A stretch of DNA of 36,070 bases, from positions 1-36,070 of the IMG/VR virus record IMGVR_UViG_3300016472_000345; one strand, written 5' to 3'. The notes under the pieces were generated by a model, which was not told the DNA's origin, made no database searches, and worked only from the letters and a program-made list of their open reading frames with translations. This document shows, in pieces, positions 3,159 to 33,827 of this stretch. Position numbers and translations under genes: made by a program. Each line of letters opens with the position of its first letter. The first letter of the stretch is position 1. This stretch comes from a virus (Duplodnaviria > Caudoviricetes).

Positions 3159-3174
3159 ATTTAATTGTAATGTA

Positions 3175-3203
3175 ATTATATATTAACTTATATTAAAAAT
3201 CAA
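3175..3203 (-). promoter_or_regulatory. sigma70-type promoter for the replication operon
   Basis: TTGATT-N17-TATAAT. Confidence 0.6.
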
Positions 3204-3207
3204 CTAT

Positions 3208-3390
3208 TTATTTTGTAACTATAATTACTTTATAACTCCAAGTACTCGTAAAGTTAAACAGACTAATACCTAAAAATGTTTTTTTTGTATGTACTGCTGT
3301 AATTGATATAACTTCTTTATCTTTTATATAATGATTTATTTTAATTTCTAATCCTACTTTTGTATCATCTTCAATTATTTTACAAACCAT
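3208..3390 (-). CDS. hypothetical protein, 60 aa
   Basis: AAAGGAG RBS; tightly packed in the operon. Confidence 0.6.
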   Translation of the reverse strand: MVCKIIEDDTKVGLEIKINHYIKDKEVISITAVHTKKTFLGISLFNFTSTWSYKVIIVTK

Positions 3391-3622: not shown

Positions 3623-3862
3623 TTATTTTTTGATTAAATCTAATATATCTTCTACACAGGAACTGATAAGTGCGTCTAATACTTGTGGTCTAGTTTTGTT
3701 AATGAATACTTCATCAAAATAATTGTAATTAGAGAATATGTAGGATAAATCTTGCTCATTTATTTTTAACTCTTTGGCAATATCTTCAATATTAGTCATA
3801 TTAACCATATAATCTACTACTAGACTTTGTACATCATAATAATTTTTTAATTTTTCTTTCAT
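3623..3862 (-). CDS. hypothetical protein, 79 aa (possible HTH)
   Basis: AAAAGGAG RBS, its own consensus promoter, and an HTH-like segment NIEDIAKELKINE. Confidence 0.7.
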   Translation of the reverse strand: MKEKLKNYYDVQSLVVDYMVNMTNIEDIAKELKINEQDLSYIFSNYNYFDEVFINKTRPQVLDALISSCVEDILDLIKK

Positions 3863-3938
3863 AAAAAACTCCTTTTGTTTTTTAAATTAATAATAATATT
3901 ATTATATAATATATTTTATTATATGTCAATATTTATTT
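3858..3938 (-). repeat. 81-bp promoter+RBS direct repeat, copy 1
   Basis: Matches 4228-4308 at all but 2 positions. Contains TTGACA(3929-3924)-N17-TATAAT(3906-3901) and AAAAGGAG before the ATG. Confidence 0.9.
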
Positions 3939-4232
3939 ATCTTCTTTTTTTTCAGTTTGTTCTAAATTAAACACTTTACTATAGCCGTTTATAATAGGTA
4001 CATTTTTAATGACTTCTTTGTCTCCTTCTTTTACTTTCTTCGTACCTGTGCTAAAACCATTAAAGATAGTTACTGCTTTACTACCTTTTTTAATTTTTAG
4101 GTTCTTTTGATTAGCTTGTAGAAAAGTAACCCAAGCATTTGATTTATAATTGTTTTGAACTCTAACACTTTCTAAAACAACTTGATTTTCACCTTGATAT
4201 AAATTTCCTGTAATTAAATTATAATTTTTCAT
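3933..4232 (-). CDS. ArdC-like ssDNA-binding (antirestriction) N-terminal domain protein
   Basis: N..TG..YQG.N, WVTFLQA, IKKGSKA and VFNLEQT motifs; no C-terminal metallopeptidase domain. Confidence 0.85.
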   Translation of the reverse strand: MKNYNLITGNLYQGENQVVLESVRVQNNYKSNAWVTFLQANQKNLKIKKGSKAVTIFNGFSTGTKKVKEGDKEVIKNVPIINGYSKVFNLEQTEKKEDK

Positions 4233-4308
4233 AAAAAACTCCTTTTGTTTTTTAAATTAATAATATTATTATTATATAATATATTTAATTATATGTCAAT
4301 ATTTATTT
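4228..4308 (-). repeat. 81-bp promoter+RBS direct repeat, copy 2
   Basis: TTGACA(4299-4294)-N17-TATAAT(4276-4271) and AAAAGGAG RBS; 370 bp from copy 1. Confidence 0.9.
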
Positions 4309-4342
4309 TTATTTTCACAAAATAAGATAAAATGAAAATAAT

Positions 4343-20830: not shown

Positions 20831-22520
20831 ATAGCATTTTTTTTAAAGTTTGAATTGTTTTGTATTCTTTATTTGAATATTGGCTAAATATTTTTACAAT
20901 ATCACCTTTTGTATTTGCTTCTTCTAATTGAGTTTTAATATCATTTACAATTTCGTTTGAAATTTTATTTGCAATAAAACCATCAAAACTTCTCCCCTTT
21001 TTAATGCTGTTAATACAATATTTTTTCCATTGTAAGATTTCTTTTCTTTCTAATTCTTCTGTTTCAGCTTCTTCTGCTTCTTCTGCTTCTTCTTCTTCTT
21101 TAACCTCAACTTGTCTTGTGTTTTGTTGTATGGGTTTAACTTCTATTGTTGCAGGATTAATTATATCCTTAACTAACATAGGTCCTGTTCCTGTCATTAC
21201 ATAATGTTCTAATCCTATTGGGTCTAAACCCTGTGCTATTCTAACCTCATCTACACTTAAAATACCTGATTTAATTTTAATGTTTTCAACCTCTGCTTCT
21301 TCTCTTACATCTGTTGGATTTACATTTATAAATTTAAATTCAAAATCTACATATTCTAAATCTCTTTGAATAATATTTGTAAATAATTCTTCTAAAAAGT
21401 TAATTAATGCTCTGCCAATTCTTTCTTGTCCTTTTTCTGATTGTACTTCTGCTGTTGCTCTGTTTGTGTTATGCGTAAAGCCAAGGTCTTGTGGGGGTAC
21501 ACCAAATACTGCACAAGTTTGTTCCAATAACCATAGTTCAAATCTTTCAAAAGGTAAATCTTTTGGGTCTTTAGTGCTAATGTAATTTACTCCGTAAGGC
21601 ATCATTTTAATTCTTCTTTGATATCTTGGGTCTCCTGCTACCATAGCGTCAAAATATGTTTGAAATTCTGATATTTGGTCACTTGTCCAATCCTCAGGTA
21701 CGGACATAAAACCTTCAACATTGTTACTATCGGTAAAAAACTTCCAATTGTATAATGTTCCTGCTAGTGCTGATTGTACTTGAAGAATTAAACTCTCTAA
21801 TGGACTTAATCCAAATATTGTATTTGTTCTTGCGTTTCTTATTCTCAAAATAAAGTCATCTTTTGTAAGTTCTGCTACTTTTGTTCCCATAATCCATTGT
21901 TCGTATGCAATTTCTGGGGGGTTGGGTATTCTTCCATTTTCATTAACTCTAACTTTTATTGTTCCAACATCAACAGGAAGTAATGATACTAATTGTCCAC
22001 CTCTTGTTTTTAATTTTTCTATTCCAATTGCTCCCATTACTAGATAATCTTCAATTATTTGTTCTTGAAAAGTTCTCATTGTGCTGTCATTACCTGCAGG
22101 TTGTTTGAAAAAATTAACTAATTCTTGTTGTATATTTTCGTTAAAATTATCAACTAATGGTATTATGCCCCAATCTAGGTGTGTTGTTTTGTTCTTAATA
22201 TAATCAATACAAGCCCTTACTATCGGATAATCTACCGAAAATGTCCTTAAAATACTTGGATTAATTGTTCCCTCTGGTTTATCCTTTATATTACTTCTTG
22301 TTTGTGCGTTAAAAAAACTTGGATAAAAATTAAATTGTTTTAATTGTTCTTGTGGGGATTTAGAAGTTGAATTTTGATTTGCTAATTGTTTTTGTAATTC
22401 TTGAATTTTTAGTTCGTTGTTTCCGTTTAACTCTATTACTTTTTCTATTTCTGTTTTAAACTTTTCAAATAAAAAATTGTTGATTGTTTTGGATATAAAA
22501 TTTTGTTTTTGTTTCGTCAT
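20811..22520 (-). CDS. portal protein
   Basis: FGLSPLE, CAVFGVPP..LG, NRATAE and GILSVDEVR..GLDP motifs; follows terL. Confidence 0.92.
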   Translation of the reverse strand: MTKQKQNFISKTINNFLFEKFKTEIEKVIELNGNNELKIQELQKQLANQNSTSKSPQEQLKQFNFYPSFFNAQTRSNIKDKPEGTINPSILRTFSVDYPIVRACIDYIKNKTTHLDWGIIPLVDNFNENIQQELVNFFKQPAGNDSTMRTFQEQIIEDYLVMGAIGIEKLKTRGGQLVSLLPVDVGTIKVRVNENGRIPNPPEIAYEQWIMGTKVAELTKDDFILRIRNARTNTIFGLSPLESLILQVQSALAGTLYNWKFFTDSNNVEGFMSVPEDWTSDQISEFQTYFDAMVAGDPRYQRRIKMMPYGVNYISTKDPKDLPFERFELWLLEQTCAVFGVPPQDLGFTHNTNRATAEVQSEKGQERIGRALINFLEELFTNIIQRDLEYVDFEFKFINVNPTDVREEAEVENIKIKSGILSVDEVRIAQGLDPIGLEHYVMTGTGPMLVKDIINPATIEVKPIQQNTRQVEVKEEEEAEEAEEAETEELERKEILQWKKYCINSIKKGRSFDGFIANKISNEIVNDIKTQLEEANTKGDIVKIFSQYSNKEYKTIQTLKKMLYELNKI

Positions 22521-23772
22521 TTTTACTTTCTTTTTTATAAAAATCTAAAATACCTGTATTACTTTCATTTAATGCTTTAATCGTTAGTGCTAATGCTATA
22601 ACACAATCATCGTGTTCTCCATCAGGTGCATTATATCTCATTATACCTGTTTCAGATTGCTGATATTCAAAAATGCTTAATTCATCTATTAATGTTTCAA
22701 TGTTTGGATAAGTTATTTCTTTATTTTCCAAAGCAATAACTAATCCTTTGATTAGATTTTCTTTACTTAAATTTGTAAATTTATAGGGCTTAATATTTAC
22801 CCTGTTTCTTAATAAATCAAATACGGGGTCGCCAACTCCTGTACTATCTAATAAGATGTTAGCATTATTATATTTTTTACTCAAACTAACAATTCTTTCA
22901 ATCTGGTCATCGTATGGTACATTATTATATCTATCCCAAGCGACTATGTGTCTTGTATCGTGCCTTATTACATAACACACCGTATAATCTGTTGTCTTTG
23001 CTAAATCTACTCCCATTGAGTATTTGCCTAATGTGAAAGGTTCTTCAAAATCTCCATCAACACAGGCGTTTATATTTCTAAATACTGAACCTACATCATC
23101 AATAAATTCTGCTAAAAATTCTTGTCTAAATATAGGATTATCTATGCCAAATTCTTGAATTAAATGTTCCCACTCATCTTTTGGGAAGTATGGGTTGTCA
23201 ATACTTCTACAATTCCAACTTTTGTAATTTAATTCGTTTTTAAATCCTTTTCTGTAATCTCTGAAATACCAATTTTTACTTCCTTTGGGTGTTGAGATAA
23301 ATATTCCCTTGCCTTTTCTATCTGATAATGTTGGTCTTAATGCTTCTCTCCAAGCAACTTCTTTAATTCTACTTGCTTCATCACCAATTAATAAATCTAA
23401 ACCCTCACCTATTAATCCTGTTGGGTCGTCAGTTGATTTACACTCTATAAAACTTCCTGTTTTTGTAATTAGTTTTAAATTACCCCTTGCTGTGTAAATA
23501 TTTTCTACAAATGGACTTAAAGGTCCTAAAAACCATTTATATACCTCTCTCCAAATCTTTTCTGTTAATGAATTTGTTGGGGCAACAATCCAAATTCTTT
23601 TATTACTTTGTAAAACTTCGTATGTTGCAAAATAAGCCCCTAATAATGATTTTCCAAATCTTCTACCTGCGTTTAAAAACTTAAATCTGCTATCATCTAA
23701 TATTATTTCTTCTTGTTTATCAAATAGGTAAAAATTAATTATCTTTTGTAGGTTCTTGTGATATATCTTCAC
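22465..23772 (-). CDS. terL: terminase large subunit
   Basis: AGRRFGKS Walker A, DEA Walker B, STPKG, GVDLA, DSTGVG and HDDCV.A motifs. Confidence 0.95.
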   Translation of the reverse strand: MKIYHKNLQKIINFYLFDKQEEIILDDSRFKFLNAGRRFGKSLLGAYFATYEVLQSNKRIWIVAPTNSLTEKIWREVYKWFLGPLSPFVENIYTARGNLKLITKTGSFIECKSTDDPTGLIGEGLDLLIGDEASRIKEVAWREALRPTLSDRKGKGIFISTPKGSKNWYFRDYRKGFKNELNYKSWNCRSIDNPYFPKDEWEHLIQEFGIDNPIFRQEFLAEFIDDVGSVFRNINACVDGDFEEPFTLGKYSMGVDLAKTTDYTVCYVIRHDTRHIVAWDRYNNVPYDDQIERIVSLSKKYNNANILLDSTGVGDPVFDLLRNRVNIKPYKFTNLSKENLIKGLVIALENKEITYPNIETLIDELSIFEYQQSETGIMRYNAPDGEHDDCVIALALTIKALNESNTGILDFYKKESKNDETKTKFYIQNNQQFFI

Positions 23773-24154
23773 CTGTTTCTCCTGTTAATTCCCCTAATAG
23801 ATTGGCAAGTCTTAAATCACCACTAATATTTGTTGTTTGTAATGCCCTACCCTCTGTTCTATCTGCTAAATCTTTATATTCGTTTAAATCTTTTCTTGCT
23901 CTTTTAACTCTTTCGTATGCTATTGCTTCTGCAACATACATATCATTTATTTTTTTTGTTTCTGTATATTTTGTAAATTCGTCTAAAGTTAAATCTTTGA
24001 AAAATTGTAACCAATAACCAAATCTTTGTTCGTTCTTTTTCCTTCCCCCAAAATTAATGTTCTGAGGATTATCAACAAAACCCCCTATTCCTGTTGGATT
24101 TTGAATTACATTTGGTAAAAATCTTCCTTTGCTATCTCTGTTTTTATTATTCAT
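23735..24154 (-). CDS. terS: putative terminase small subunit (ATG 24154 preferred to TTG 24169)
   Basis: Overlaps the terL start; RD.KGRF..NP.G..GGRKK N-terminus and DRTEGRA C-terminal motif. Confidence 0.7.
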   Translation of the reverse strand: MNNKNRDSKGRFLPNVIQNPTGIGGFVDNPQNINFGGRKKNEQRFGYWLQFFKDLTLDEFTKYTETKKINDMYVAEAIAYERVKRARKDLNEYKDLADRTEGRALQTTNISGDLRLANLLGELTGETGEDISQEPTKDN

Positions 24155-24219
24155 AATAAAATTATACAATATTAATATTTAAAGTTTTTTCTATTAATGT
24201 AATGAACATTTATTGAGAG

Positions 24220-24245
24220 GGTGGCTACAACAGAAAAAAGCCACC
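24220..24245 (-). terminator. hairpin downstream of the transporter gene
   Basis: GGTGGCT-N12-AGCCACC. Confidence 0.4.
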
Positions 24246-24251
24246 ATAGTT

Positions 24252-24872
24252 CTATGACCTTTCAGTCTTAACCAGGTAAATTCCTGGAATACTAAAAATA
24301 GTCATCAAACCTTTCACCAAAATGTTTGAAATGATAATTGATATTACTACTTCAATAGGTAAATCACCTACAAAAGCAATCAATCCAAACACTACGCTGT
24401 CAATTGGAATTGATAGGGCATTTGAAAACAATACCCGACCCCATTGGAATTTCTTACTTATTCGATTGATAAAGAAACTATATGCCTCAGTATCAATCAA
24501 CTCACTAATGACTTCTGCTAGAATTGAAGCAATCACAATTCGCCACAAAGGACCAAGGATTGTTTCAAACTCTGCTTGAAATCCCCAAGTAGGGTCAGCA
24601 GGTAACCAGATGATAAAACTAAAAAACAGTGCCATCAGAAGATTAATTGCACCTGCCGTTAGAACTACCTTTTTTGCCATTGCCTTACCCCAAGCCTTGT
24701 GTATCATATCACGCAAGGTAAAAGTAAATGGATACACAAATGTACCCCCATCAATTGCAAGTCCTGCCACCATTGCAATCTTCGTTGACGAAATATCAGC
24801 AAAAATCTGTGCTGAGATATAACCTGCCACCGAGAGCATAGCAATTGTGGTCAATGCATCTTTCTTGTCCAT
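24252..24872 (-). CDS. yhhQ: queuosine precursor (preQ0/preQ1) transporter, YhhQ/Vut_1 family
   Basis: About six TM helices; K......G...YP.TF...D......G...AK, RIVIAS..A..ISE..D and R...SN..S..IDS..F..IAF motifs; GGGAG RBS. Confidence 0.9.
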   Translation of the reverse strand: MDKKDALTTIAMLSVAGYISAQIFADISSTKIAMVAGLAIDGGTFVYPFTFTLRDMIHKAWGKAMAKKVVLTAGAINLLMALFFSFIIWLPADPTWGFQAEFETILGPLWRIVIASILAEVISELIDTEAYSFFINRISKKFQWGRVLFSNALSIPIDSVVFGLIAFVGDLPIEVVISIIISNILVKGLMTIFSIPGIYLVKTERS

Positions 24873-24943
24873 ACATCACTCCCAAATTTATTAATCGGTT
24901 TGATTAATCTGTTGTATTTATATTTTAACATATATATTTTATT

Positions 24944-25669
24944 TTAATGTAGGTATTTTTTTTGTTGTTCTAAAGTATATTTAACATTGTGTAAATCTTT
25001 TTCTATATGATTAACATTTTTTTTTCCTCTAATTGATGAGCCAAATACTCTGTTAAATTTTCCACCTGTTAGCCAAGTAGTGCTATCTGAACTATAAAAA
25101 TGCCTAAATAACGGATTACTAAATCTTGTGTAACCAAATCCGTGAACTTTTGAATTATTATCTTTTGCAATTTTTAAAAACAAAGGTAAATACTTATTTG
25201 GAACTTCTGAACCCCCTTCTGGTGTTGTTATAAAACCTGAAAATCCAATTATTGGATAAGTTTTAGCCATAAATTTCCAATAATCAAAACCTCTATCTCT
25301 ATGCCATACTACAACAGGTGGTATTCCTATTTCTTCTGTTAATTTTTTAGTCCATTTTTCAACTTGTGGTAATCCAACAATGTTTTCAATATCTAATTCA
25401 ACATACATTTCAATATGTTTTTTATATTTATTTATAAAAACTATATACTCATTTAAAAATTTATCGTAATCAACTTTAACTACTCCTTTTTGAAAAGTAT
25501 GAGCACCACTATCAATCATAATATTACAATTTAAACTTATTAATTCTTCAAATGTTTTAATTAAAGATTGATTTTTGTTTAAATCGTAATAATTGTATAA
25601 AAAGTTTCTTGCCCCTACATCATATAAAAGTTTTGCTCTTGAACCTGCACCACTAAAAAATATTTTCAT
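24944..25669 (-). CDS. tRNA-guanine transglycosylase-fold protein, probable DpdA-like 7-deazaguanine DNA transglycosylase
   Basis: DSGAHTF, ELD, P.V.WH, VHGFG and S.DSTTW motifs; adjacent to yhhQ. Confidence 0.75.
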   Translation of the reverse strand: MKIFFSGAGSRAKLLYDVGARNFLYNYYDLNKNQSLIKTFEELISLNCNIMIDSGAHTFQKGVVKVDYDKFLNEYIVFINKYKKHIEMYVELDIENIVGLPQVEKWTKKLTEEIGIPPVVVWHRDRGFDYWKFMAKTYPIIGFSGFITTPEGGSEVPNKYLPLFLKIAKDNNSKVHGFGYTRFSNPLFRHFYSSDSTTWLTGGKFNRVFGSSIRGKKNVNHIEKDLHNVKYTLEQQKKYLH

Positions 25670-26355
25670 TTACCTAAAAAATCTGCACAAATTAATTCTA
25701 ATGCTCTGCCTATTGGTTTAATTCCATCATTTTCAACAACTTCTAATGCTTGATTAATTATCTCTGCTTGTGCGTTTGTAACATTAATTTTTTTAACTTT
25801 AACAATTGAAACTTTATGTCCGTTTTCTTTTTCTTCTAAACTTTCAGCAAATTCTTTAAGTTTAATATAATTTTCAACACTTAATGTATAAGTTTTTTTT
25901 GTTTCAATTTGAGTAATATCAAATCTTAATTCTTCCTCTAATTTATCGTAATCAATTAAATCTGATAAACCAAAAACTATATCTAATTCATTTTTAGTAA
26001 ACCCTAAGTCCATTAAAAAATCTTTATCATACGAACTTAATAAATCCCAATCCCAATCTCCTGTATTTTTATTGCTTCTAATTAGATATTCTTCTAATTC
26101 TTCTTTGTTTAATTTTCTACTTGGTACTCTTACATCAATTTCTTCTTCACCTCTACCTAATAACTGCATTATTTTAAGTCTTTGATGTCCTGCGATTATT
26201 GTATTATCTGTATTTATTGCTGGAATTTCTACCAAATTGTATTTTGTAATTGATTGTTTTAGTTGTTCAACTTGTTCTTCTCTCATTAATCTTGGGTTTG
26301 CTTCATAGGGTAATAAATCATTAATTTTTCTTTTTTCTGTATTCCATTTAAGCAT
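25666..26355 (-). CDS. ParB-like N-terminal domain protein with a possible C-terminal ribbon-helix-helix
   Basis: L.PY..NPR, SI..Y..V..P, IIAGHQR and N...GDWD...L motifs; ATGA-type overlap with the TGT-like gene. Confidence 0.85.
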   Translation of the reverse strand: MLKWNTEKRKINDLLPYEANPRLMREEQVEQLKQSITKYNLVEIPAINTDNTIIAGHQRLKIMQLLGRGEEEIDVRVPSRKLNKEELEEYLIRSNKNTGDWDWDLLSSYDKDFLMDLGFTKNELDIVFGLSDLIDYDKLEEELRFDITQIETKKTYTLSVENYIKLKEFAESLEEKENGHKVSIVKVKKINVTNAQAEIINQALEVVENDGIKPIGRALELICADFLGK

Positions 26356-26357
26356 TT

Positions 26358-26572
26358 TTATTTCCTGTAAATTTTTTTTATTTCTGTGTATTTTATAAAT
26401 TCTTCTAAAGTTAAATCTTTAAAAAATTGCAACCAATAACCAAACCTTTGCTCATTTTTTTTCTACCACCAAAATTTATATTTCCTGGATTATCTTTAAA
26501 TCCTCCTTTACCTGTTGGGTTTGCAATGTTATTTGGTAAAAATCTTCCTTTATTGTCTTGAAATTTATTCAT
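26358..26572 (-). pseudogene. frameshifted, truncated paralogue of terS
   Basis: Reads MNKFQDNKGRFLPNNIANPTGKGGFKDNPGNINFGGRKK, then in the -1 frame NEQRFGYWLQFFKDLTLEEFIKYTEIKKIYRK*, nearly identical to the N-terminal half of 23735..24154. Confidence 0.85.
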
Positions 26573-26584
26573 AAAATATTTATA

Positions 26585-27430
26585 TTACAATTTTTCATTT
26601 ACACTCTTTAACCTATCTAATCTCTTTTGTTCTCTTTCTGTCTTTTTATTTCTTATCCTAATTAATTCATCAGTAATTGGTAAACAATTCCACATTTGCC
26701 TTAAAGAATAATATACTATTGAATATCTAACTGAATTTGCAGTTTGTTTATATATTGAAGTCACGCCGTGCAATATGCCTTGACCGTCAAACATTAAAAC
26801 TGAATTATTTGCTAATTCTATTCCTAAATCTAATTCTGGTAATGCTAAATGCCCTCCTTTTATATCTTTTTTTAAAACTAACATAGCTGAATAAACTTCT
26901 TTAAAATTACCAGTATCAAAATGATATTTTAACTGATTGTCTTTATTAATGATGCCAGAAGTAAATGGTGTTTTTGGTAATGTATATTCTTCATTTACAT
27001 TTTGTTGTGTTACTTCTAAATGTTTTTTATACATAATAGGGTCTGAAATATGATAAATGTTTGCTATTTTTTCTCCATACCTACAAACTAGACTATGTTC
27101 TTTAGGATAATCTCTTGCAAGCGATGTAGTTGAACAAAAATCTTTTCTCGTAACTAATCGGGGGCTGTAGCCAAAAATTCTAGAGGTTGATAATAGACCG
27201 CCTTGCCTTGTGCTAGTAAGGAATTTTATATTATCTAAACCTCTTAACAATGGTTTGTAATCTAATTCTTCTTCATCTAATTTTTTATAAATACATAATA
27301 TTTCACCTGTATTTTTATCTGCAATAATACAAGACTCTTTTATAAAATTTGTATAATCTGTGTCTAAAGCTGTTCTATTTTTAAATTTATTTAAATCTAT
27401 TTTTTTTCTTTCAACTAATATTGTCTGCAT
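26585..27430 (-). CDS. TET/JBP-like 2OG-Fe(II) dioxygenase
   Basis: PFTSGIINK..LKYHFD.GN (HxD), GG.L..PE, FDG...LHGVT (distal H) and RYSIVYY (2OG-binding R). Confidence 0.85.
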   Translation of the reverse strand: MQTILVERKKIDLNKFKNRTALDTDYTNFIKESCIIADKNTGEILCIYKKLDEEELDYKPLLRGLDNIKFLTSTRQGGLLSTSRIFGYSPRLVTRKDFCSTTSLARDYPKEHSLVCRYGEKIANIYHISDPIMYKKHLEVTQQNVNEEYTLPKTPFTSGIINKDNQLKYHFDTGNFKEVYSAMLVLKKDIKGGHLALPELDLGIELANNSVLMFDGQGILHGVTSIYKQTANSVRYSIVYYSLRQMWNCLPITDELIRIRNKKTEREQKRLDRLKSVNEKL

Positions 27431-28019
27431 AATATGTTTCTATCAAAAAATTAAACACATCTGTATTATTTCCTAAATTTTTCTCTGCTTTAATTTTATT
27501 TATTTTATCCATTATTTCTAAATATTCTTGATTTGTGTAATAAAACACAATTTGTTTAATATTTCCATTTAAAAACTTTTCCATACTTTCTTTTGTATTA
27601 TTTTCATCATAATCTCTTTCGTTTTCATCGTCATATCTCCATATGTCAGTATTAATTCCCCACTCTTGCAAAGGTAAATCGTCCCACTCGTTTTGTAAAA
27701 TAATATCGTCATAACTTCCTGACAATCCTGTTGGGCTATTATCTTTAATTGCAAACTCTTGCTTTTGTTTTAAGTTCCAAGTTTCAGGTAATTGTTTAAA
27801 ATATTTTTCATCGTACTCAACCTCACCCTGCTCAACTAGCATTTTATATGCTAAAAACCTTTGATTACCTCCCCATATTACAAAATCTTTATCATAAATA
27901 ATTTGTCTTATTTCCAACATTTCCATAAAGTTTTTTAATGAATTTTTCAATGATGTAAATTGTGTATCGCTAATTTGTCTTGGATTATTTTCTAACAATT
28001 TAAGTTTATTTAGTAGCAT
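27411..28019 (-). CDS. ParB-like N-terminal domain protein with a possible C-terminal ribbon-helix-helix
   Basis: NNPRQI, SL..F..ML..R.I, GGNQR and EF.IKDN motifs; overlaps the dioxygenase start. Confidence 0.85.
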   Translation of the reverse strand: MLLNKLKLLENNPRQISDTQFTSLKNSLKNFMEMLEIRQIIYDKDFVIWGGNQRFLAYKMLVEQGEVEYDEKYFKQLPETWNLKQKQEFAIKDNSPTGLSGSYDDIILQNEWDDLPLQEWGINTDIWRYDDENERDYDENNTKESMEKFLNGNIKQIVFYYTNQEYLEIMDKINKIKAEKNLGNNTDVFNFLIETYYADNIS

Positions 28020-28034
28020 AATTTTATTTTATCA

Positions 28035-28075
28035 TATAGAAAAACCCCCTTGTTTAAGAGAGGGTTTGTTCTATA
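28035..28075 (-). terminator. intrinsic terminator separating the glycosyltransferase block from the ParB-TET block
   Basis: GAACAAACCCTCT-loop-AGGGGGTTTTTC. Confidence 0.65.
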
Positions 28076-28233: not shown

Positions 28234-29718
28234 CTAATCGTTGCTTCCGTTGTTTCCGTTGTTTCCGTGACAATGTTTGTATTTTTTTCCTGAACTACAA
28301 AAGCAAATGTCATTTCTATTTAATTTTATATTAATTTTTCTTTGTTTTTCTAATTCGTTATAAGCCTTATCAAAAATCTGTTCCCACTTATTAACTACAT
28401 TGTCCCAACTAATTGTTTGAACCCAATTATACCCCTGCTGTGCTATTTTATTTGCTTTATCTTTATTTTTATAAACCCAATCTAATTTAACTACAATGTC
28501 TTCTATATCTGTTTTGGGTCTTATAACTCCATTGTCTATAATTCCCATACATATAAAATCATTAAGTCCATAACCTGATTTAACAGGTATTCCTCTTAGT
28601 GTGTTTATATTTTTCTCAATATAATCAATATTAACTTCTTTTTCATAAATATCTTTCATTCCTATTATTTCAGGAATTGAACTATTTGCTGGAGCTATTA
28701 TTATCTTATTAACTGCCATTGCTTCTGTATTGATAAATCCCCAACCCTCCCCTAATGTTGTTGTTAGTAATACATCTGCACTATTGTATATTTTGTTTAT
28801 TGTTTCTATTGGAAAGCCATACATTTCGTTGAAATTAATCGGAAGTAATATATCTGTTTCTTTAAGTCCCACTTGTTTTGCAATTTCCCATAAGTCACCC
28901 CCTACATCATTTCTTTTTGAGTGTAGATATAATTTTGCTTTATCATTTATCTTTTTATACTCTGCATACGCTTTTAGTGTACTCATTAAATCTTTTCTTA
29001 TTTGGTTTCTTGATACATTAACTATAAGAAAATCATCATCTTTAACTTCATTTTGAAAATACCTCTTTCTAAACTCTTTTATTTCTTCATCTTTTAAGGG
29101 GTAGAAGTCTTTTGTATTTACTCCGTGGGGTATTATCTCAACTCTATTTTTTAAGTTTAACTTATCGGTATCAAATCTCAACATTTCATCTTTTCCAAAT
29201 TCTGTATAACTAATAGGATAATCACATAATGCAATTCCTTGTGTTACCCAATAATCTTGTAACCTACCATCTACAGGGTAGTAACCAATCCAATTAAATA
29301 AATAATTTTTATCTACTTTTTCATTTAATAAAATTTCTTTTTGTAATTGTTTAATTCTTAAGCTGAAATTGTACCCTTCGGCTAAATTATCTGTTCCAGC
29401 TAATATAAAATGGTCTTGAATTGTAAATAATAAATCAAAACCTGCTTTAATATCTATGTCTTTACCTGTGAGTATTTGGATTGTTCTTCCCCTGCCATAA
29501 ATATCTGAATAACCTACAGGTTGAGCAGGTGTCATTGTATAAGGATATTTTTCTAAATCTTCTTTGTTGATTGTTCCTCTGTAATTAATTCCTACTACCG
29601 TTATATCGTACTTATCTGTTTCATTTAATTTCTTTAGTATGTTTTTTGCGAGTATTCCAAATCCTGTTGATACCGTTGGGCTATCCATTAATGCTAATAT
29701 TTTAATTTTTTTATTCAT
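28234..29718 (-). CDS. GT-B (GT4-like) glycosyltransferase with a C-terminal SEC-C Zn motif
   Basis: DSP..STGFG, IPHGV, RNQ.RK and EGWG...EAMA motifs; RNDICFCSSGKKYKHCHG at the end. Confidence 0.9.
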   Translation of the reverse strand: MNKKIKILALMDSPTVSTGFGILAKNILKKLNETDKYDITVVGINYRGTINKEDLEKYPYTMTPAQPVGYSDIYGRGRTIQILTGKDIDIKAGFDLLFTIQDHFILAGTDNLAEGYNFSLRIKQLQKEILLNEKVDKNYLFNWIGYYPVDGRLQDYWVTQGIALCDYPISYTEFGKDEMLRFDTDKLNLKNRVEIIPHGVNTKDFYPLKDEEIKEFRKRYFQNEVKDDDFLIVNVSRNQIRKDLMSTLKAYAEYKKINDKAKLYLHSKRNDVGGDLWEIAKQVGLKETDILLPINFNEMYGFPIETINKIYNSADVLLTTTLGEGWGFINTEAMAVNKIIIAPANSSIPEIIGMKDIYEKEVNIDYIEKNINTLRGIPVKSGYGLNDFICMGIIDNGVIRPKTDIEDIVVKLDWVYKNKDKANKIAQQGYNWVQTISWDNVVNKWEQIFDKAYNELEKQRKINIKLNRNDICFCSSGKKYKHCHGNNGNNGSND

Positions 29719-30376
29719 AATCTTCTACTTTTTCAACTTCTTCAACTTCTTCATCTTCATAAAAATAATATGGACTATTACCATAGGTTCTGTCTATTCC
29801 CTCACTTGTTAATTGTTCACTATATATTTTTAATCTCGGTAAATTTTCTTTACTATATGGAACTATAAAATCTGCATTGTGCCACCTGAGTAAGTTATTT
29901 GGTTGACAACAAAAGTTTCCGTCATCTAAAACTATGAAGTGATAGCATTTTGAGTCTTGGTCATTTGAATATCCGACATTTAACTCGTTTAAATCTCCTT
30001 CGTAATCATCAATTGTAAATAAATAAACTCCACTTCTCCAAATCTTATCTCTACACCTTACATCTACTCTTTTGTTTTGCAGAAATGCAAATGTTGTTAC
30101 TGCTATATTATTGGATTGACAATCCCAAGTTTGTAATAGTGATAATCTTTTTTCTTCTTTAAAATTTAAAATATCGTATTCTTCTTTGTGAATAAATGCT
30201 GATATTGGCATATTCCAAAACATTGCACCAATACTTGATAGAAAATGAAAATGTAAAGGTCTATTAATCATTGACTTAACTGCGAAGATGTAGCCCTCTA
30301 AATCTTTTTCATATCCTGTATATTTTTTTCTAATTCTACATAGTATATAAGGTGTGTTTGCGTTTAATTGTGCCAT
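29711..30376 (-). CDS. conserved phage hypothetical protein
   Basis: MA.LNAN.P, GA.F...PISAF, WDC, YLFTID and K..H...LDDGNF..QPNN...W motifs resemble a widespread uncharacterised phage family (from memory). Confidence 0.7.
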   Translation of the reverse strand: MAQLNANTPYILCRIRKKYTGYEKDLEGYIFAVKSMINRPLHFHFLSSIGAMFWNMPISAFIHKEEYDILNFKEEKRLSLLQTWDCQSNNIAVTTFAFLQNKRVDVRCRDKIWRSGVYLFTIDDYEGDLNELNVGYSNDQDSKCYHFIVLDDGNFCCQPNNLLRWHNADFIVPYSKENLPRLKIYSEQLTSEGIDRTYGNSPYYFYEDEEVEEVEKVEDYE

Positions 30377-31194
30377 ATTTTTTTATACTCATTAGGAATA
30401 TTTTTCCAATCTGTAATGTTGTATTTATCATCGTTGTATGGTTTTTGATAACCTAATCCGTCCATACATAGTGCTGGAATATGTCCCCATTTTTCAATAA
30501 ATACTCTTTCTGTTTTACTTGAGTTAATTCCTAAATATGGATTTGATTTAATTGTCATACTTCCAAAATGATAATAAGGTGCGTAACTTATTCTTTTTGC
30601 AATTTTATTTAATTTAACAATTCTTAAGTGATAGTCATTATCTTCATAATATGCAGGTATAAAATTCTCATCAAAAAAGCCAACTTGTTGTAAAGTATGG
30701 ATTGAAATTAAAGGACAGCTAAAATCTGGTCCTTGTTCTCTCCAATTTGTAATTTCTTTTTTATCAAATTCAAAATCTCCTAAAACTTTACATAAATTAA
30801 AAGTAGTTAAATCCATTTCAGGGGCTATATTACTTCCTGTAACCATTACATATTTATTATTGTATATTCTATTTAATTCTTCATACGCAAAAACTAAATT
30901 ATCAATTGTACTTGAGTGAAAAATTACATCATTATTAGGAAAGAAAATGTATTCAATGTCTTTATTTTTAAGGGCATTTATAAATCCAAAATTCCACGCT
31001 TTTGATAAACATACTCTGGGTTCAAATCTATGATACCTTATATTATTTTCTTTCAGCCAATCTATTGTTCCATCATTACTTTCTTGGTCTATTATTAATA
31101 ATTCGTATTCATATTTTGTTTTAATGCTTTTAATTGCATTTTTTAAATATTCTAAATTATTGAGTGTTACTATATTTATTTGTAATTTTTTCAT
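30364..31194 (-). CDS. GT2-family (GT-A) glycosyltransferase
   Basis: IID..S.DGT, AWN.G, NNDV, G.FDE.F..AYYED.DY and HFGS motifs. Confidence 0.9.
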   Translation of the reverse strand: MKKLQINIVTLNNLEYLKNAIKSIKTKYEYELLIIDQESNDGTIDWLKENNIRYHRFEPRVCLSKAWNFGFINALKNKDIEYIFFPNNDVIFHSSTIDNLVFAYEELNRIYNNKYVMVTGSNIAPEMDLTTFNLCKVLGDFEFDKKEITNWREQGPDFSCPLISIHTLQQVGFFDENFIPAYYEDNDYHLRIVKLNKIAKRISYAPYYHFGSMTIKSNPYLGINSSKTERVFIEKWGHIPALCMDGLGYQKPYNDDKYNITDWKNIPNEYKKIWHN

Positions 31195-31721
31195 AAATCT
31201 TTATAAAATTCTTTATTTAAAATCCACCAATCCTCACTAATATCACTATCAATATATAATGGATTATTTCTATCATAATCTCTCATTTTTAAATTAAATT
31301 TTCCATTACAAGTAATTCTGTCATTTAATTCTTTTTCATCATAACTCCACCTATGTAAGTCTGTAATATGTCCTTGATATGCTCCGTAGGTATTTACATT
31401 AAATATAAATGTGTCAATTTTTCCTTCTAACCATCTTTTTGCTAATTCTCTCATATTTGGAATATGAATTGATAATATCCCTCCTACTTTTAAAACTCTG
31501 TACCACTCTCTTATTGTTTCTTCTTGTTCGTGCAATGGTATGTGTTCCCATAAATGGTGAGCTAATAATATATCGCAACTATTATCTTCAAATGGTAATT
31601 TCTTAACATCTGCTATGTGGTCTATCTTATACTTTTCACCATTTTCTTTGTATTGCTCCCTAATATCTACATTAACCCAATTATCAAAAGGTCTTTGCCC
31701 ACTTGCTAGATTTACTCGCAT
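31191..31721 (-). CDS. class I SAM-dependent methyltransferase (Methyltransf_11-like)
   Basis: NLASG...W.NVD, LPFEDNS.D, H..EH and W.RVLK.GG motifs. Confidence 0.85.
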   Translation of the reverse strand: MRVNLASGQRPFDNWVNVDIREQYKENGEKYKIDHIADVKKLPFEDNSCDILLAHHLWEHIPLHEQEETIREWYRVLKVGGILSIHIPNMRELAKRWLEGKIDTFIFNVNTYGAYQGHITDLHRWSYDEKELNDRITCNGKFNLKMRDYDRNNPLYIDSDISEDWWILNKEFYKDL

Positions 31722-32266
31722 TTAAAAACTCCTAACTTGTTTCCATAGACTGCAATTAATTTAAATTTTGGGTCTAAAGTGTCATTAACAGCTCTTAAAA
31801 CATCTGGTAGTGAGTCGTGTCCATAATCATCAAATAATACATAACCATTTTTATTTATGTGTTTTGTCCATAATTCAATATCTTTTTTAACAAAATTGTA
31901 TTCGTGATTTCCGTCAATGTGAATTAAGTCTATTTCTTTATTCCAATTTTTGTACGCTTCTTCGCTTGTTTGTTTTATTAAATTAAACTTCCAATTATAT
32001 TTATTTGTTTGATTTTCTATGTGTGCCTGTGCCTCTAATCCATTATCTTGAATAAACGGATCAATTGCTGTAAAGTCAAAACTCTTTATTTTTGATACTT
32101 CATTTATTACTGCCGTACTTCTTCCAAACTCAACCCCTATTTCAACTATTACTGCATTGTCACTAAGTGATAAAAGTGTAGAAAATAATCCTAATGCTTC
32201 ATCTCTGTTAAATGCACACTCATTACTACTTTCTTCAACTATTCTATAAACTTCTTCAAATTTCAT
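31712..32266 (-). CDS. class I SAM-dependent methyltransferase (Methyltransf_24-like)
   Basis: VEIG...GRS, IDPF, IDLIHIDG.H.Y..V..D and G...FDDY motifs. Confidence 0.88.
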   Translation of the reverse strand: MKFEEVYRIVEESSNECAFNRDEALGLFSTLLSLSDNAVIVEIGVEFGRSTAVINEVSKIKSFDFTAIDPFIQDNGLEAQAHIENQTNKYNWKFNLIKQTSEEAYKNWNKEIDLIHIDGNHEYNFVKKDIELWTKHINKNGYVLFDDYGHDSLPDVLRAVNDTLDPKFKLIAVYGNKLGVFKCE

Positions 32267-32976
32267 AAAATTATACTTTCTGGTGCAATTTGTTTTGCTA
32301 GTTTTAAACTTTCTTCATATCCTACTATTGGGTTTCCCTCGGTGTTTGTTATTCCACAATGTGCGATTGTTTGTTTTTTTAAACAACCTACTTTTAAGCC
32401 ATCATTTCTAATTCTTTGGCAATATTCCCAATCTTCTGATTTTCCTGTTCCTATTGAATTATCCATTAATAGTCCGTACTTGTCCCACACTTCATAATCT
32501 AAAAACCAACTCCAACCTGATATTGCATCGTGGCTTGTTATGTCATTGTTACCTTCATCTATTCTTGCTTGTAAATATGGGTGTATTCCACAACCTAACA
32601 ACTTATATTCATTTTTATATTTTTCAAAGGTCTGGATTAAGTTTTCAGACCATTTTTCTGTAAAGTAAACATCACCATCAAATAAATATAAATATCTTCC
32701 CTTATTGTATTTTTGAGCCAAATTAACCCCTATATTCTTTGAAGCCCCTACTCCTAATTGTTGATTGTTTGTACTTATTATTATTTTCTCATCATTTATA
32801 AAACTTGAATTATTAATGTCGTCTAAAAATTCATAAAAACTTGAATTATCATTAATTATGATTAATTTATTTAATAATTCTTTGGGTGTGTTTTTAAGTA
32901 GGGTAACTATTGTTTGGTCAAATAATTCATATCTTTTATTATCATCTATTTTAACTGCAACTACAAAATCAATCAT
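32263..32976 (-). CDS. GT2-family glycosyltransferase
   Basis: IND.S, G...SKN.G, DGD (DxD), EDWEYC.R and H.G motifs. Confidence 0.85.
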   Translation of the reverse strand: MIDFVVAVKIDDNKRYELFDQTIVTLLKNTPKELLNKLIIINDNSSFYEFLDDINNSSFINDEKIIISTNNQQLGVGASKNIGVNLAQKYNKGRYLYLFDGDVYFTEKWSENLIQTFEKYKNEYKLLGCGIHPYLQARIDEGNNDITSHDAISGWSWFLDYEVWDKYGLLMDNSIGTGKSEDWEYCQRIRNDGLKVGCLKKQTIAHCGITNTEGNPIVGYEESLKLAKQIAPESIIL

Positions 32977-33806
32977 ATTCTAAAAGGTAATTTAATTTTA
33001 ATATTTTCATTTTTTCTGTAATCCCATTTTTCATAACCTTTAATGTGGGCGAAGTCGTGTACTTCACTTTTAGATTGTTTAAAATCTGCGTTCCAATTTT
33101 CATTAACATCAGTTATACCCCCTATATGATTTATTTCTGCATTTATACAAATTACCTGATAACCTAATTCGTATGCTTGAAGTCCTAATTCCGTATCATA
33201 GAAGTGGTGATAACCTAATGTTTCATCTAATCTTATTTTAGTATCAACTTTTATAATTTGGCTAAATCCGTCTAAACAAGCAACTTTTATCCAATCCTGA
33301 CTAAATTGTGCGTGGTGGTGTACTTCGGGTTTTAATAAACATTTTGTACCTGCAACAGGATTAATTCTTGCTAATTGTCCTTTATAGTAATGTGTTTTGT
33401 AAATATCGTAAGTTCCGACCCCAAATGCTCCATAAAATCCTGCAATACCTACTTCTTGTATTTTGTTTGCTTCTTCTATTGATTTAATTATTTTTAAATC
33501 CCAATCTTTTTCAAACATTTCAATATCACTATGAGTGCAAAATAAATAATCAATATTTAAACTTTTTGCCTTTTCTAACATTGTGTTGTATGCAATGGGC
33601 AGTCCGTTATTTTTATCACTATGAATTAAAATGTCTGTTTCTTCTTTTTTTAACCATTTAACAACTGCTGGGTCGCTTCCATTATCATATAGAATATAAG
33701 TTAAGTTTTTTGATTGATTTTCTTTTAAGAGTTTAATTGTTTTTAAAGTTTGATTTTTAACAATTTCTTGAGTAGCTAAAATTGGAATTGCAACTGCTAA
33801 TCTCAT
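32973..33806 (-). CDS. GT2-family glycosyltransferase
   Basis: DNGS, N.G...AYN, HSD, LDG, DE..G.H.YD and HIGG motifs. Confidence 0.85.
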   Translation of the reverse strand: MRLAVAIPILATQEIVKNQTLKTIKLLKENQSKNLTYILYDNGSDPAVVKWLKKEETDILIHSDKNNGLPIAYNTMLEKAKSLNIDYLFCTHSDIEMFEKDWDLKIIKSIEEANKIQEVGIAGFYGAFGVGTYDIYKTHYYKGQLARINPVAGTKCLLKPEVHHHAQFSQDWIKVACLDGFSQIIKVDTKIRLDETLGYHHFYDTELGLQAYELGYQVICINAEINHIGGITDVNENWNADFKQSKSEVHDFAHIKGYEKWDYRKNENIKIKLPFRI

Positions 33807-33827
33807 TTTTAAATTATATCATAATTT

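Follow-up and report, generated by a model that had tools for sequence, protein, structure and literature searches.

The closest described systems to the locus reported here are phage dioxygenases and bacterial DNA guanine transglycosylases that work with ParB-fold proteins. According to PMC13229309, the ParBs of such dioxygenases switch on the oxidation of T to 5-hydroxymethyluracil (5hmU) with a modest preference for the cognate enzyme, both ParB domains being needed, and the best ParB-dioxygenase pairs convert 25-35% of T in Escherichia coli DNA. Bacterial DpdA requires the ParB-fold ATPase DpdB (PMC10164549). Here we describe a locus of a freshwater phage, IMG/VR virus record IMGVR_UViG_3300016472_000345 (Duplodnaviria; Caudoviricetes), in which a ParB gene with a TET/JBP dioxygenase gene (cassette A) is followed by a second ParB gene with genes for a DpdA-like transglycosylase and the transporter YhhQ (cassette B), in front of the terminase genes. 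The window is this single virus record at its full length of 36,070 bases, and handles of the form L002 denote loci compared with it.

Our best explanation is that two known cassettes, ParB+TET/JBP and ParB+DpdA+YhhQ, were likely joined by recombination into a tandem within a variable slot, and that they would write two partial, motif-dependent post-replication marks, 5hmU and a 7-deazaguanine (probably dPreQ0); we put the probability of this reading at about 0.6. Gene content, folds, intact catalytic motifs, the TET-type tail of ParB-A, the variability of the slot and the rarity of the pair are direct observations. Both modules and the activator role of the TET-type ParB were known, and new here is their union with a scar of the small terminase gene terS. 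The locus comprises the following features.

27411..28019, minus strand: ParB-A, 202 aa, with a ParB-type N domain (GxxRxxA), a TET-type C-terminal tail and no helix-turn-helix (HTH)
26585..27430, minus strand: TET/JBP Fe(II)/2-oxoglutarate (2OG) dioxygenase, 281 aa, with H170-D172, H221 and R235 and a 32-aa C-terminal extension past the last conserved Cys, C249
26358..26572, minus strand: 5' fragment of a second terS, frameshifted and truncated, a probable recombination scar
25666..26355, minus strand: ParB-B, 229 aa, with a ParB nucleoside triphosphate (NTP)-binding fold and a different tail, predicted at low confidence as strand-helix-strand-helix-helix
24944..25669, minus strand: minimal TGT-fold DpdA-like transglycosylase, 241 aa, with D53, D93, H123 and D195 conserved in 31 homologs and no Zn site
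24252..24872, minus strand: YhhQ queuosine-precursor transporter, 206 aa, with 38% GC against 26% in its neighbours
23735..24154, minus strand: intact small terminase-like gene terS, assigned from its position and from homologs that precede terL in L002 and L242, with no profile match
22465..23772, minus strand: terminase large subunit gene terL, by profile matches

All genes of the window lie on the minus strand, and those for replication, lysis, tail, head, portal and terminase can be recognised. The order ParB-A, TET/JBP, terS fragment, ParB-B, TGT-like gene, yhhQ, terS, terL had been given in a preliminary description of this DNA, together with an overlap of each enzyme gene with its own upstream ParB gene; the positions of the open reading frames (ORFs) bear out both, with overlaps of 20 nt in cassette A and 4 nt (ATGA) in cassette B.

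The 281-aa protein scores 57.9 bits against PF12851 (cut-off 34.9), and its H170, D172, H221 and R235 are invariant in 120 homologs. We take H170, D172 and H221 to be the HxD...H iron ligands and R235 the 2OG-binding Arg. The label 'queuine tRNA-ribosyltransferase', attached to this protein through phrog_6059, was overruled by the Pfam match and the TET/JBP catalytic motifs. The 241-aa protein matches phrog_887 with an expectation value (E) of 4e-34, and its model is a TIM barrel with a mean predicted local distance difference test (pLDDT) of 89.5, for which the top 17 PDB matches in Foldseek are all TGTs (best E 1.3e-5, template-modelling score (TM) 0.62); its viral structure matches include annotated phage TGTs. 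Its D53, D93, H123 and D195 are invariant in the 31 homologs and correspond by motif order to D95, D130, H181 and D256 of bacterial DpdA (PMC10164549); with one Cys only, it lacks the CXCX2CX22H zinc site of that enzyme. PF12851, phrog_887, the Foldseek TGT matches and the invariant motifs uphold the two family calls, TET/JBP and TGT/DpdA-like, made earlier. When the TET and DpdA profiles were run against PDB sequences, no significant match was returned.

The third protein of cassette B, YhhQ, lies well over the cut-offs of PF02592 (129.5 against 27.2 bits) and TIGR00697 (102.5 against 50.95). Across viral and metagenomic loci of the same DpdA family, the QueC, QueD, QueE and FolE set occurs in 77 of 160 and YhhQ in 50 of 160, including 44 with YhhQ and no que gene at all; the window is of this last type, its profile scans showing neither que genes of the preQ0 pathway nor a dpdC-like neighbour. 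Because its loci carry the que/FolE set or YhhQ, the family is, on gene neighbourhood, tied to 7-deazaguanine metabolism. The composition of yhhQ is foreign (38% GC, and GC at third codon positions of 0.33 against 0.10-0.21), and its product is 74% identical to the YhhQ of L083, the corresponding DpdAs being only 45% identical. Elsewhere in the family, two tandem DpdA-family genes follow one ParB and precede queC (L108, L115, L118, L124, L136, L158, L234, L291). The closest DpdA match in the genome collection (51%) is in a ParB-DpdA-YhhQ-terS-terL arrangement (L282:6352-8720), on a contig binned with Candidatus Saccharibacteria, which is a weak host hint only.

Both ParBs match the ParB-like phrog_620 (E 8e-9 and 2e-22) and carry the GxxR motif, and the top Foldseek matches of ParB-B are ParB/Noc NTP-binding domains (6sdk, E 1.3e-5). 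The two are only 29% alike and differ in their tails. Neither has an HTH-sized middle domain, as a chromosome-segregation ParB would, and no ParA was found among the window proteins scanned. A TET-tail profile built from 64 tails of TET loci, with ParB-A outside the training set, matched ParB-A at E 2.7e-22 and did not match ParB-B; among 155 DpdA-linked ParBs it gave no match at E<1e-5 and three at E<1e-3. An acidic DxDxFF linker, counted by regular expression, is found in 104 of the 155 DpdA-linked ParBs and in 2 of the 64 TET-linked ones. The preliminary description had likened the ends of both tails to a ribbon-helix-helix; the strand-helix-helix end of ParB-B is predicted at low confidence (pLDDT 41-66), and with NikR at E 0.21 and RHH_7 in 4 of 38 tails (best E 0.004) such an identity is only hinted at.

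For cassette A the case for a dedicated ParB is the stronger. A ParB lies within 4 kb of TET in 72 of 73 loci, and ParB-A aligns through its tail with the ParB of L280 (hhalign, probability 99.8), whose ParB and TET were matched by eye to the ParB185/5mYOX185 pair of PMC13229309. By analogy with the published ParB-dependent T-dioxygenases and their cognate preference (PMC13229309), and given the TET-type tail, ParB-A is likely the dedicated activator of the cassette A dioxygenase, as had been proposed. The case for ParB-B as an activator of DpdA is weaker and would follow from gene coupling and the analogy to DpdB: in 142 of the 164 loci whose upstream DNA was long enough for the count, the gene immediately before DpdA encodes a ParB (64/70 viral, 38/49 metagenomic, 40/45 genomic). 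The sole full-length relative of ParB-B (P0153) lies on an NCBI contig of 7,840 bp, and so does a DpdA with 54% identity (P0126); this is probably one and the same contig. A complex prediction for two ParB-B and one DpdA gave 0.30 against a mark of 0.32, controls not having been folded, and is counted neither way. We found no paper on a ParB as partner of a phage DpdA, the subscription literature being mostly outside the search.

The two cassettes are known, common and interchangeable occupants of one slot before terS-terL. Relatives that share the terminase and the upstream GT1 glycosyltransferase gene fill the slot in four other ways: GP88, ParB, TET and TAGT in L002 (terL 73%); ParB and TAGT with no TET in L242 (terL 70%); and, read by eye, only an HNH-like gene in L409 and only a sugar epimerase/dehydratase-like gene in L408. 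At the equal position, cultured Acadian has ParB-TET-TAGT and Bipper ParB-DpdA-QueD/E-FolE. Stand-alone modules of both kinds also exist, ParB-TET-terS in L035 and L060 and ParB-DpdA-YhhQ-terS in L083, L085, L096, L178 and L282. In L242 (2749-4342) the ParB carries another tail type and is followed by TAGT, a glycosyltransferase (GT) cassette with no visible acceptor-making enzyme.

Pairing of TET with DpdA is rare, each half being known and common. The survey took the best 80 of 282 and the best 80 of 375 TET loci, and the best 80 of at least 515, the best 80 of 311 and all 58 DpdA loci of one DpdA family; many of these loci are fragments, and other DpdA subfamilies could be missed. The 146 best-scoring TET loci, which form 62 groups without a sampled 60-mer in common, contained no DpdA, and the 218 best-scoring DpdA loci (138 such groups) contained no TET. 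Whole-record searches, in which both profiles detect the window itself, found no record holding both among 50 (49 TET carriers plus L242) and among 48 DpdA carriers. The neighbourhood survey suggested by the preliminary description shows ParB coupling to be common in each cassette and the TET+DpdA pair to occur nowhere else among the best-scoring loci surveyed, and we found no paper on TET/JBP and DpdA in one phage, again in a search that mostly left out subscription literature. Stacking of ParB cassettes as such is not unique: ParB-C5-methyltransferase is stacked with ParB-TET in L003/L004 and L342, and two ParB-TET pairs stand in tandem with a third ParB between them in L344/L345 and L348. 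These other stacks, the interchangeability of cassettes in a single slot and the broken terS as a probable scar had been missed earlier.

Over 108 nt, the terS fragment between the cassettes is 85% identical to the intact terS; it is one base short in a run of A near 26460 and ends immediately ahead of the start of ParB-B. Over 61 codons (81% nucleotide identity) the two differ at 17 silent and 9 amino-acid-changing codons, and the fragment is 78% identical in nucleotides to the terS of L242. Because the differences are mostly silent, the broken terS is probably a recombination scar, and the pattern fits a second functional terS that was brought in or cut by recombination. Origin as a decayed duplicate of the neighbouring terS was rejected, mostly silent divergence indicating selection and not decay; a terS-ParB fusion by programmed frameshift was also rejected, the product being only ~70 aa and ending before ParB-B. 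An assembly chimera at the terS repeat was ruled out by contigs and pieces from four sequencing runs. In each of X1 and X2, possibly the source of the record, the full length is present in a single contig and agrees at every base (0 differences). X3, from the same study, reads through the frameshift of the fragment, and X4, which belongs to another study and has a depth of 2-3, contributes identical pieces within ParB-A and at ParB-B. Either cassette may be the newcomer. The scar illustrates how modification cassettes would move, by exchange in a terS-anchored slot.

Under the tandem reading, a promoter before ParB-A would give one transcript that extends through yhhQ, and translation of each enzyme would be coupled to that of its own ParB. 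Dimeric ParB-A would activate the dioxygenase on double-stranded DNA, like ParB176 and ParB185. The substrate would be T, because the scan of the window's proteins turned up no C5 DNA methyltransferase (small ORFs being unscanned and the genome perhaps incomplete); 5-methylcytosine as the main TET substrate was rejected on the same result. The cassette A mark would stop at 5hmU, since the window holds no TAGT, ADDT or kinase partner for TET. In cassette B, preQ0 or preQ1 would be imported by YhhQ or supplied by the host, and DpdA would exchange it for G via a covalent Asp195 intermediate, likely stimulated by ParB-B as bacterial DpdA is by DpdB (about 50%). One cassette would have come from a relative, an illegitimate left junction cutting one terS and leaving the second intact. 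Mark levels would probably be low to moderate, spread by short sequence context rather than clustered at the packaging start.

Both marks are probably partial, given the lack of a tailoring glycosyltransferase and of a preQ0 pathway and the strong avoidance of restriction sites. Eight 4-base palindromes are almost completely avoided in the window, where 513 would be expected and 16 occur; the window itself served to select these motifs, but L242 (0 against 120 expected) and L002 (40 against 281) show the same avoidance. CGCG, GCGC, GGCC, ACGT, GATC, TCGA, CATG, CCGG and GCNGC are near-absent in all three. In our reading, this avoidance reflects strong restriction pressure that persists despite the marks, and such pressure may be the reason why the slot keeps acquiring cassettes. 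The single TCGA and two of the four CCWGG sites of the window fall in yhhQ, and a 99-aa gene at 3933-4232 matches the anti-restriction family phrog_7245 (E 1e-14).

Several points weigh against the two-mark reading, which is a prediction from the genes. Identity between the window TET and the L280 enzyme is only 26%, and by eye the window TET has few residues after R75, where 5mYOX176 has ~30 residues of a variable insert found to be essential (PMC13229309); the alignments begin after this region. An enzyme so distant, with so short an insert, may behave unlike clade C1, to which the described T-dioxygenases belong, and several ParB-linked enzymes yield <5% 5hmU (PMC13229309). Since the tailoring partner kept by 70 of 81 TET loci is absent from the window locus, cassette A may be in decay. 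On the side of cassette B, ParB-B is without the acidic DxDxFF linker of most DpdA-linked ParBs, and the ParBs closest to it in the N domain are paired with methyltransferases, with a Mom-like gene (by reading) or with no enzyme. The DpdA of phage 9g inserts preQ0 alone in E. coli, with no ParB, and of the two DpdA-only phages measured, Orion has no marks and 7-11 about 50 per million nt (PMC6884629).

Some of these points suit a transient recombinant in which one cassette effectively works, either because TET is decaying after loss of its glycosyltransferase or because DpdA is idle without precursor, as in Orion, and in which the tandem is to be resolved. The broken terS between the cassettes agrees with such a state, and so do the absence of TAGT, which is present in 56 of 81 TET loci and in L002, the lack of que genes and the lack of other double carriers among the best-scoring loci surveyed; the palindrome avoidance in the window and L242 would likewise mark a lineage not shielded by its own modifications. 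Weighing against it are two enzymes and two ParBs that are full length and keep all invariant residues, the partner-less ParB-TET-terS loci L035 and L060, the presence of YhhQ and identical sequence in runs of two studies, and we consider this account unlikely, if the most serious competitor of the tandem reading.

The behaviour of 9g DpdA, which alone yields dPreQ0 (PMC6884629), also bears on a view of the ParBs as generic packaging-region or regulatory proteins that merely travel with the enzymes, DpdA at least acting by itself. N domains of the ParB-B type have many partners or none, and no stable ParB176-enzyme complex was detected in vitro (PMC13229309). Set against this are the TET-type tail, which tracks TET loci almost perfectly, the ParB dependence demonstrated for the TET class (PMC13229309) and the frequency of ParB-DpdA coupling given above, which together make the view very improbable.

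The preliminary description had further suggested that the two marks are possibly localised near the packaging start. In such a scheme each ParB would bring its own enzyme to a defined site there, and the marks would label or control pac and terminase loading. In its favour, most loci keep the place before terS-terL, terS is preceded by a ParB without any enzyme in L251, L252, L263-L265 and L268, a ParB-packaging hypothesis is cited in PMC8256090, and the site avoidance speaks against a global shield. Localisation of the marks is nonetheless unsupported: in characterised relatives the modification follows short motifs throughout the genome (up to 25-35% of T, about 28-32% of G), terS-terL apparently is transcribed from a promoter of its own, located behind a hairpin, packaging in L408 and L409 does without such cassettes, and the 20 largest direct-repeat families include no repeat array or parS-like site except the terS copy. 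We judge packaging control improbable and retain the tandem reading with genome-wide, partial marks.

The signals around the locus were as follows.

28042..28067, minus strand: intrinsic terminator-like hairpin, which ends the upstream glycosyltransferase/methyltransferase block
28026..28034, minus strand: extended -10-like element 12 nt before the ParB-A ATG, a putative leaderless promoter
24220..24245, minus strand: 7-bp inverted repeat after yhhQ, seen by eye and not in the scan list, a possible terminator

A terminator and a promoter had been placed at about 28030-28075. The terminator stands, 28067-28042 being among 7 sites found in the window against 1.4 +/- 1.1 in shuffled sequences. 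The promoter did not come out of a sigma-70 scan, which gave none before ParB-A and a total at chance level (33 against 31.7), though the extended -10-like motif is present. This motif lies 12 nt before the ATG of both ParB-A and the first glycosyltransferase gene, and terS has a plain TATAAT at the same spacing behind the 7-bp inverted repeat; -10-like motifs so spaced occur at 3 of the 21 starts looked at, with a background of 0.3% per position. TA(T/A)AAT is found exactly 12 nt before ATG at 33806-33818, 28019-28034 and 24154-24166, and these three heads of units suggest leaderless transcripts. ParB-A to yhhQ would then be one transcript and terS-terL a separate one.

Upstream of the hairpin, a block at 28234-33806 encodes three GT2, one GT1 with a SEC-C motif and two S-adenosylmethionine (SAM) methyltransferase genes. 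L002, L242 and L409 share much of this block, irrespective of whether they carry TET; for this reason it probably glycosylates the virion, the host surface or protein rather than DNA. As a tailoring set for TET the block was rejected, persisting as it does in L242 and L409 without TET. At the other end of the window, a 22-nt repeat array inside the replication initiator gene (2503-2700) probably represents origin iterons, and intergenic repeats with TTGAC on the minus strand (464-526, 918-980, 3159-3209, 3857-3943, 4227-4313) are likely early promoters. Gene gp2 of Mycobacterium phage Acadian (L244:813-1691) encodes a TET/JBP homolog 36% identical to the window enzyme and is followed by TAGT; many records of such actinophage genes are labelled queuine tRNA-ribosyltransferase or DpdA, the same wrong label as in phrog_6059, and phages with a mislabelled TET/JBP gene may have been miscounted as DpdA-only in surveys.

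As the biology of a single phage the locus is of modest interest, a rare recombinant of two known modules. Two ParB-enzyme pairs in one genome nevertheless form a ready-made 2x2 test of ParB dedication, and the same locus tests whether phage DpdA, like bacterial DpdA, needs a ParB-fold partner, a question that concerns the cassette in most of the 218 DpdA loci seen. Tentatively, and with more doubt than confidence, one may see the phage ParB fold as a general activator platform, a single NTP-binding domain whose exchangeable tails each turn on a different DNA-modifying enzyme, ParB-B as the first required activator of a phage DpdA, and this phage as the first shown to write 5hmU and a 7-deazaguanine through non-interchangeable ParBs. 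If this were true, ParB-B would be DpdB's small viral equivalent, and its cassette type occurs in more than 100 loci here.

Compared with the T-dioxygenase systems 5mYOX176/ParB176 and 5mYOX185/ParB185 (clade C1; O'Toole et al. 2026, PMC13229309), the window likewise has a ParB with an NTP-binding domain, a tail and no HTH directly before TET/JBP, a homologous tail, a C-terminal extension of the enzyme and no adjacent C5-methyltransferase, the terminase often being near. It differs in its distant enzyme with, by eye, a much shorter variable insert, in the lack of a GATase, kinase, AADT or GT partner and in the DpdA cassette that follows; DpdA goes unmentioned in the main text and 12 supplements of that study. 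With the phage DpdAs that lack preQ0 genes, some of which are accompanied by YhhQ (group 3, Hutinet et al.), the window shares the TGT fold, the catalytic Asp/His set, a precursor from host or salvage and YhhQ. The account of group 3 does not mention ParB, and the window enzyme is a minimal 241-aa barrel without a Zn site. Bacterial DpdA/DpdB (Gedara et al. 2023, PMC10164549) is alike in placing beside a DNA guanine transglycosylase a ParB-fold NTPase that is needed for preQ0 insertion. DpdB differs in being an ATPase of the DndB/SspE type that has a DGQQR motif and whose C domain is helical, and bacterial DpdA in its Zn site and insertions; the window is without DpdC or restriction genes. The left-end slot of actinophages is alike in having ParB gp1, then TET+TAGT (Acadian) or DpdA+que (Bipper), then the terminase, and Acadian shares the ATGA coupling with the window. 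The Acadian and Bipper records, however, hold one cassette per genome, and the window holds both.

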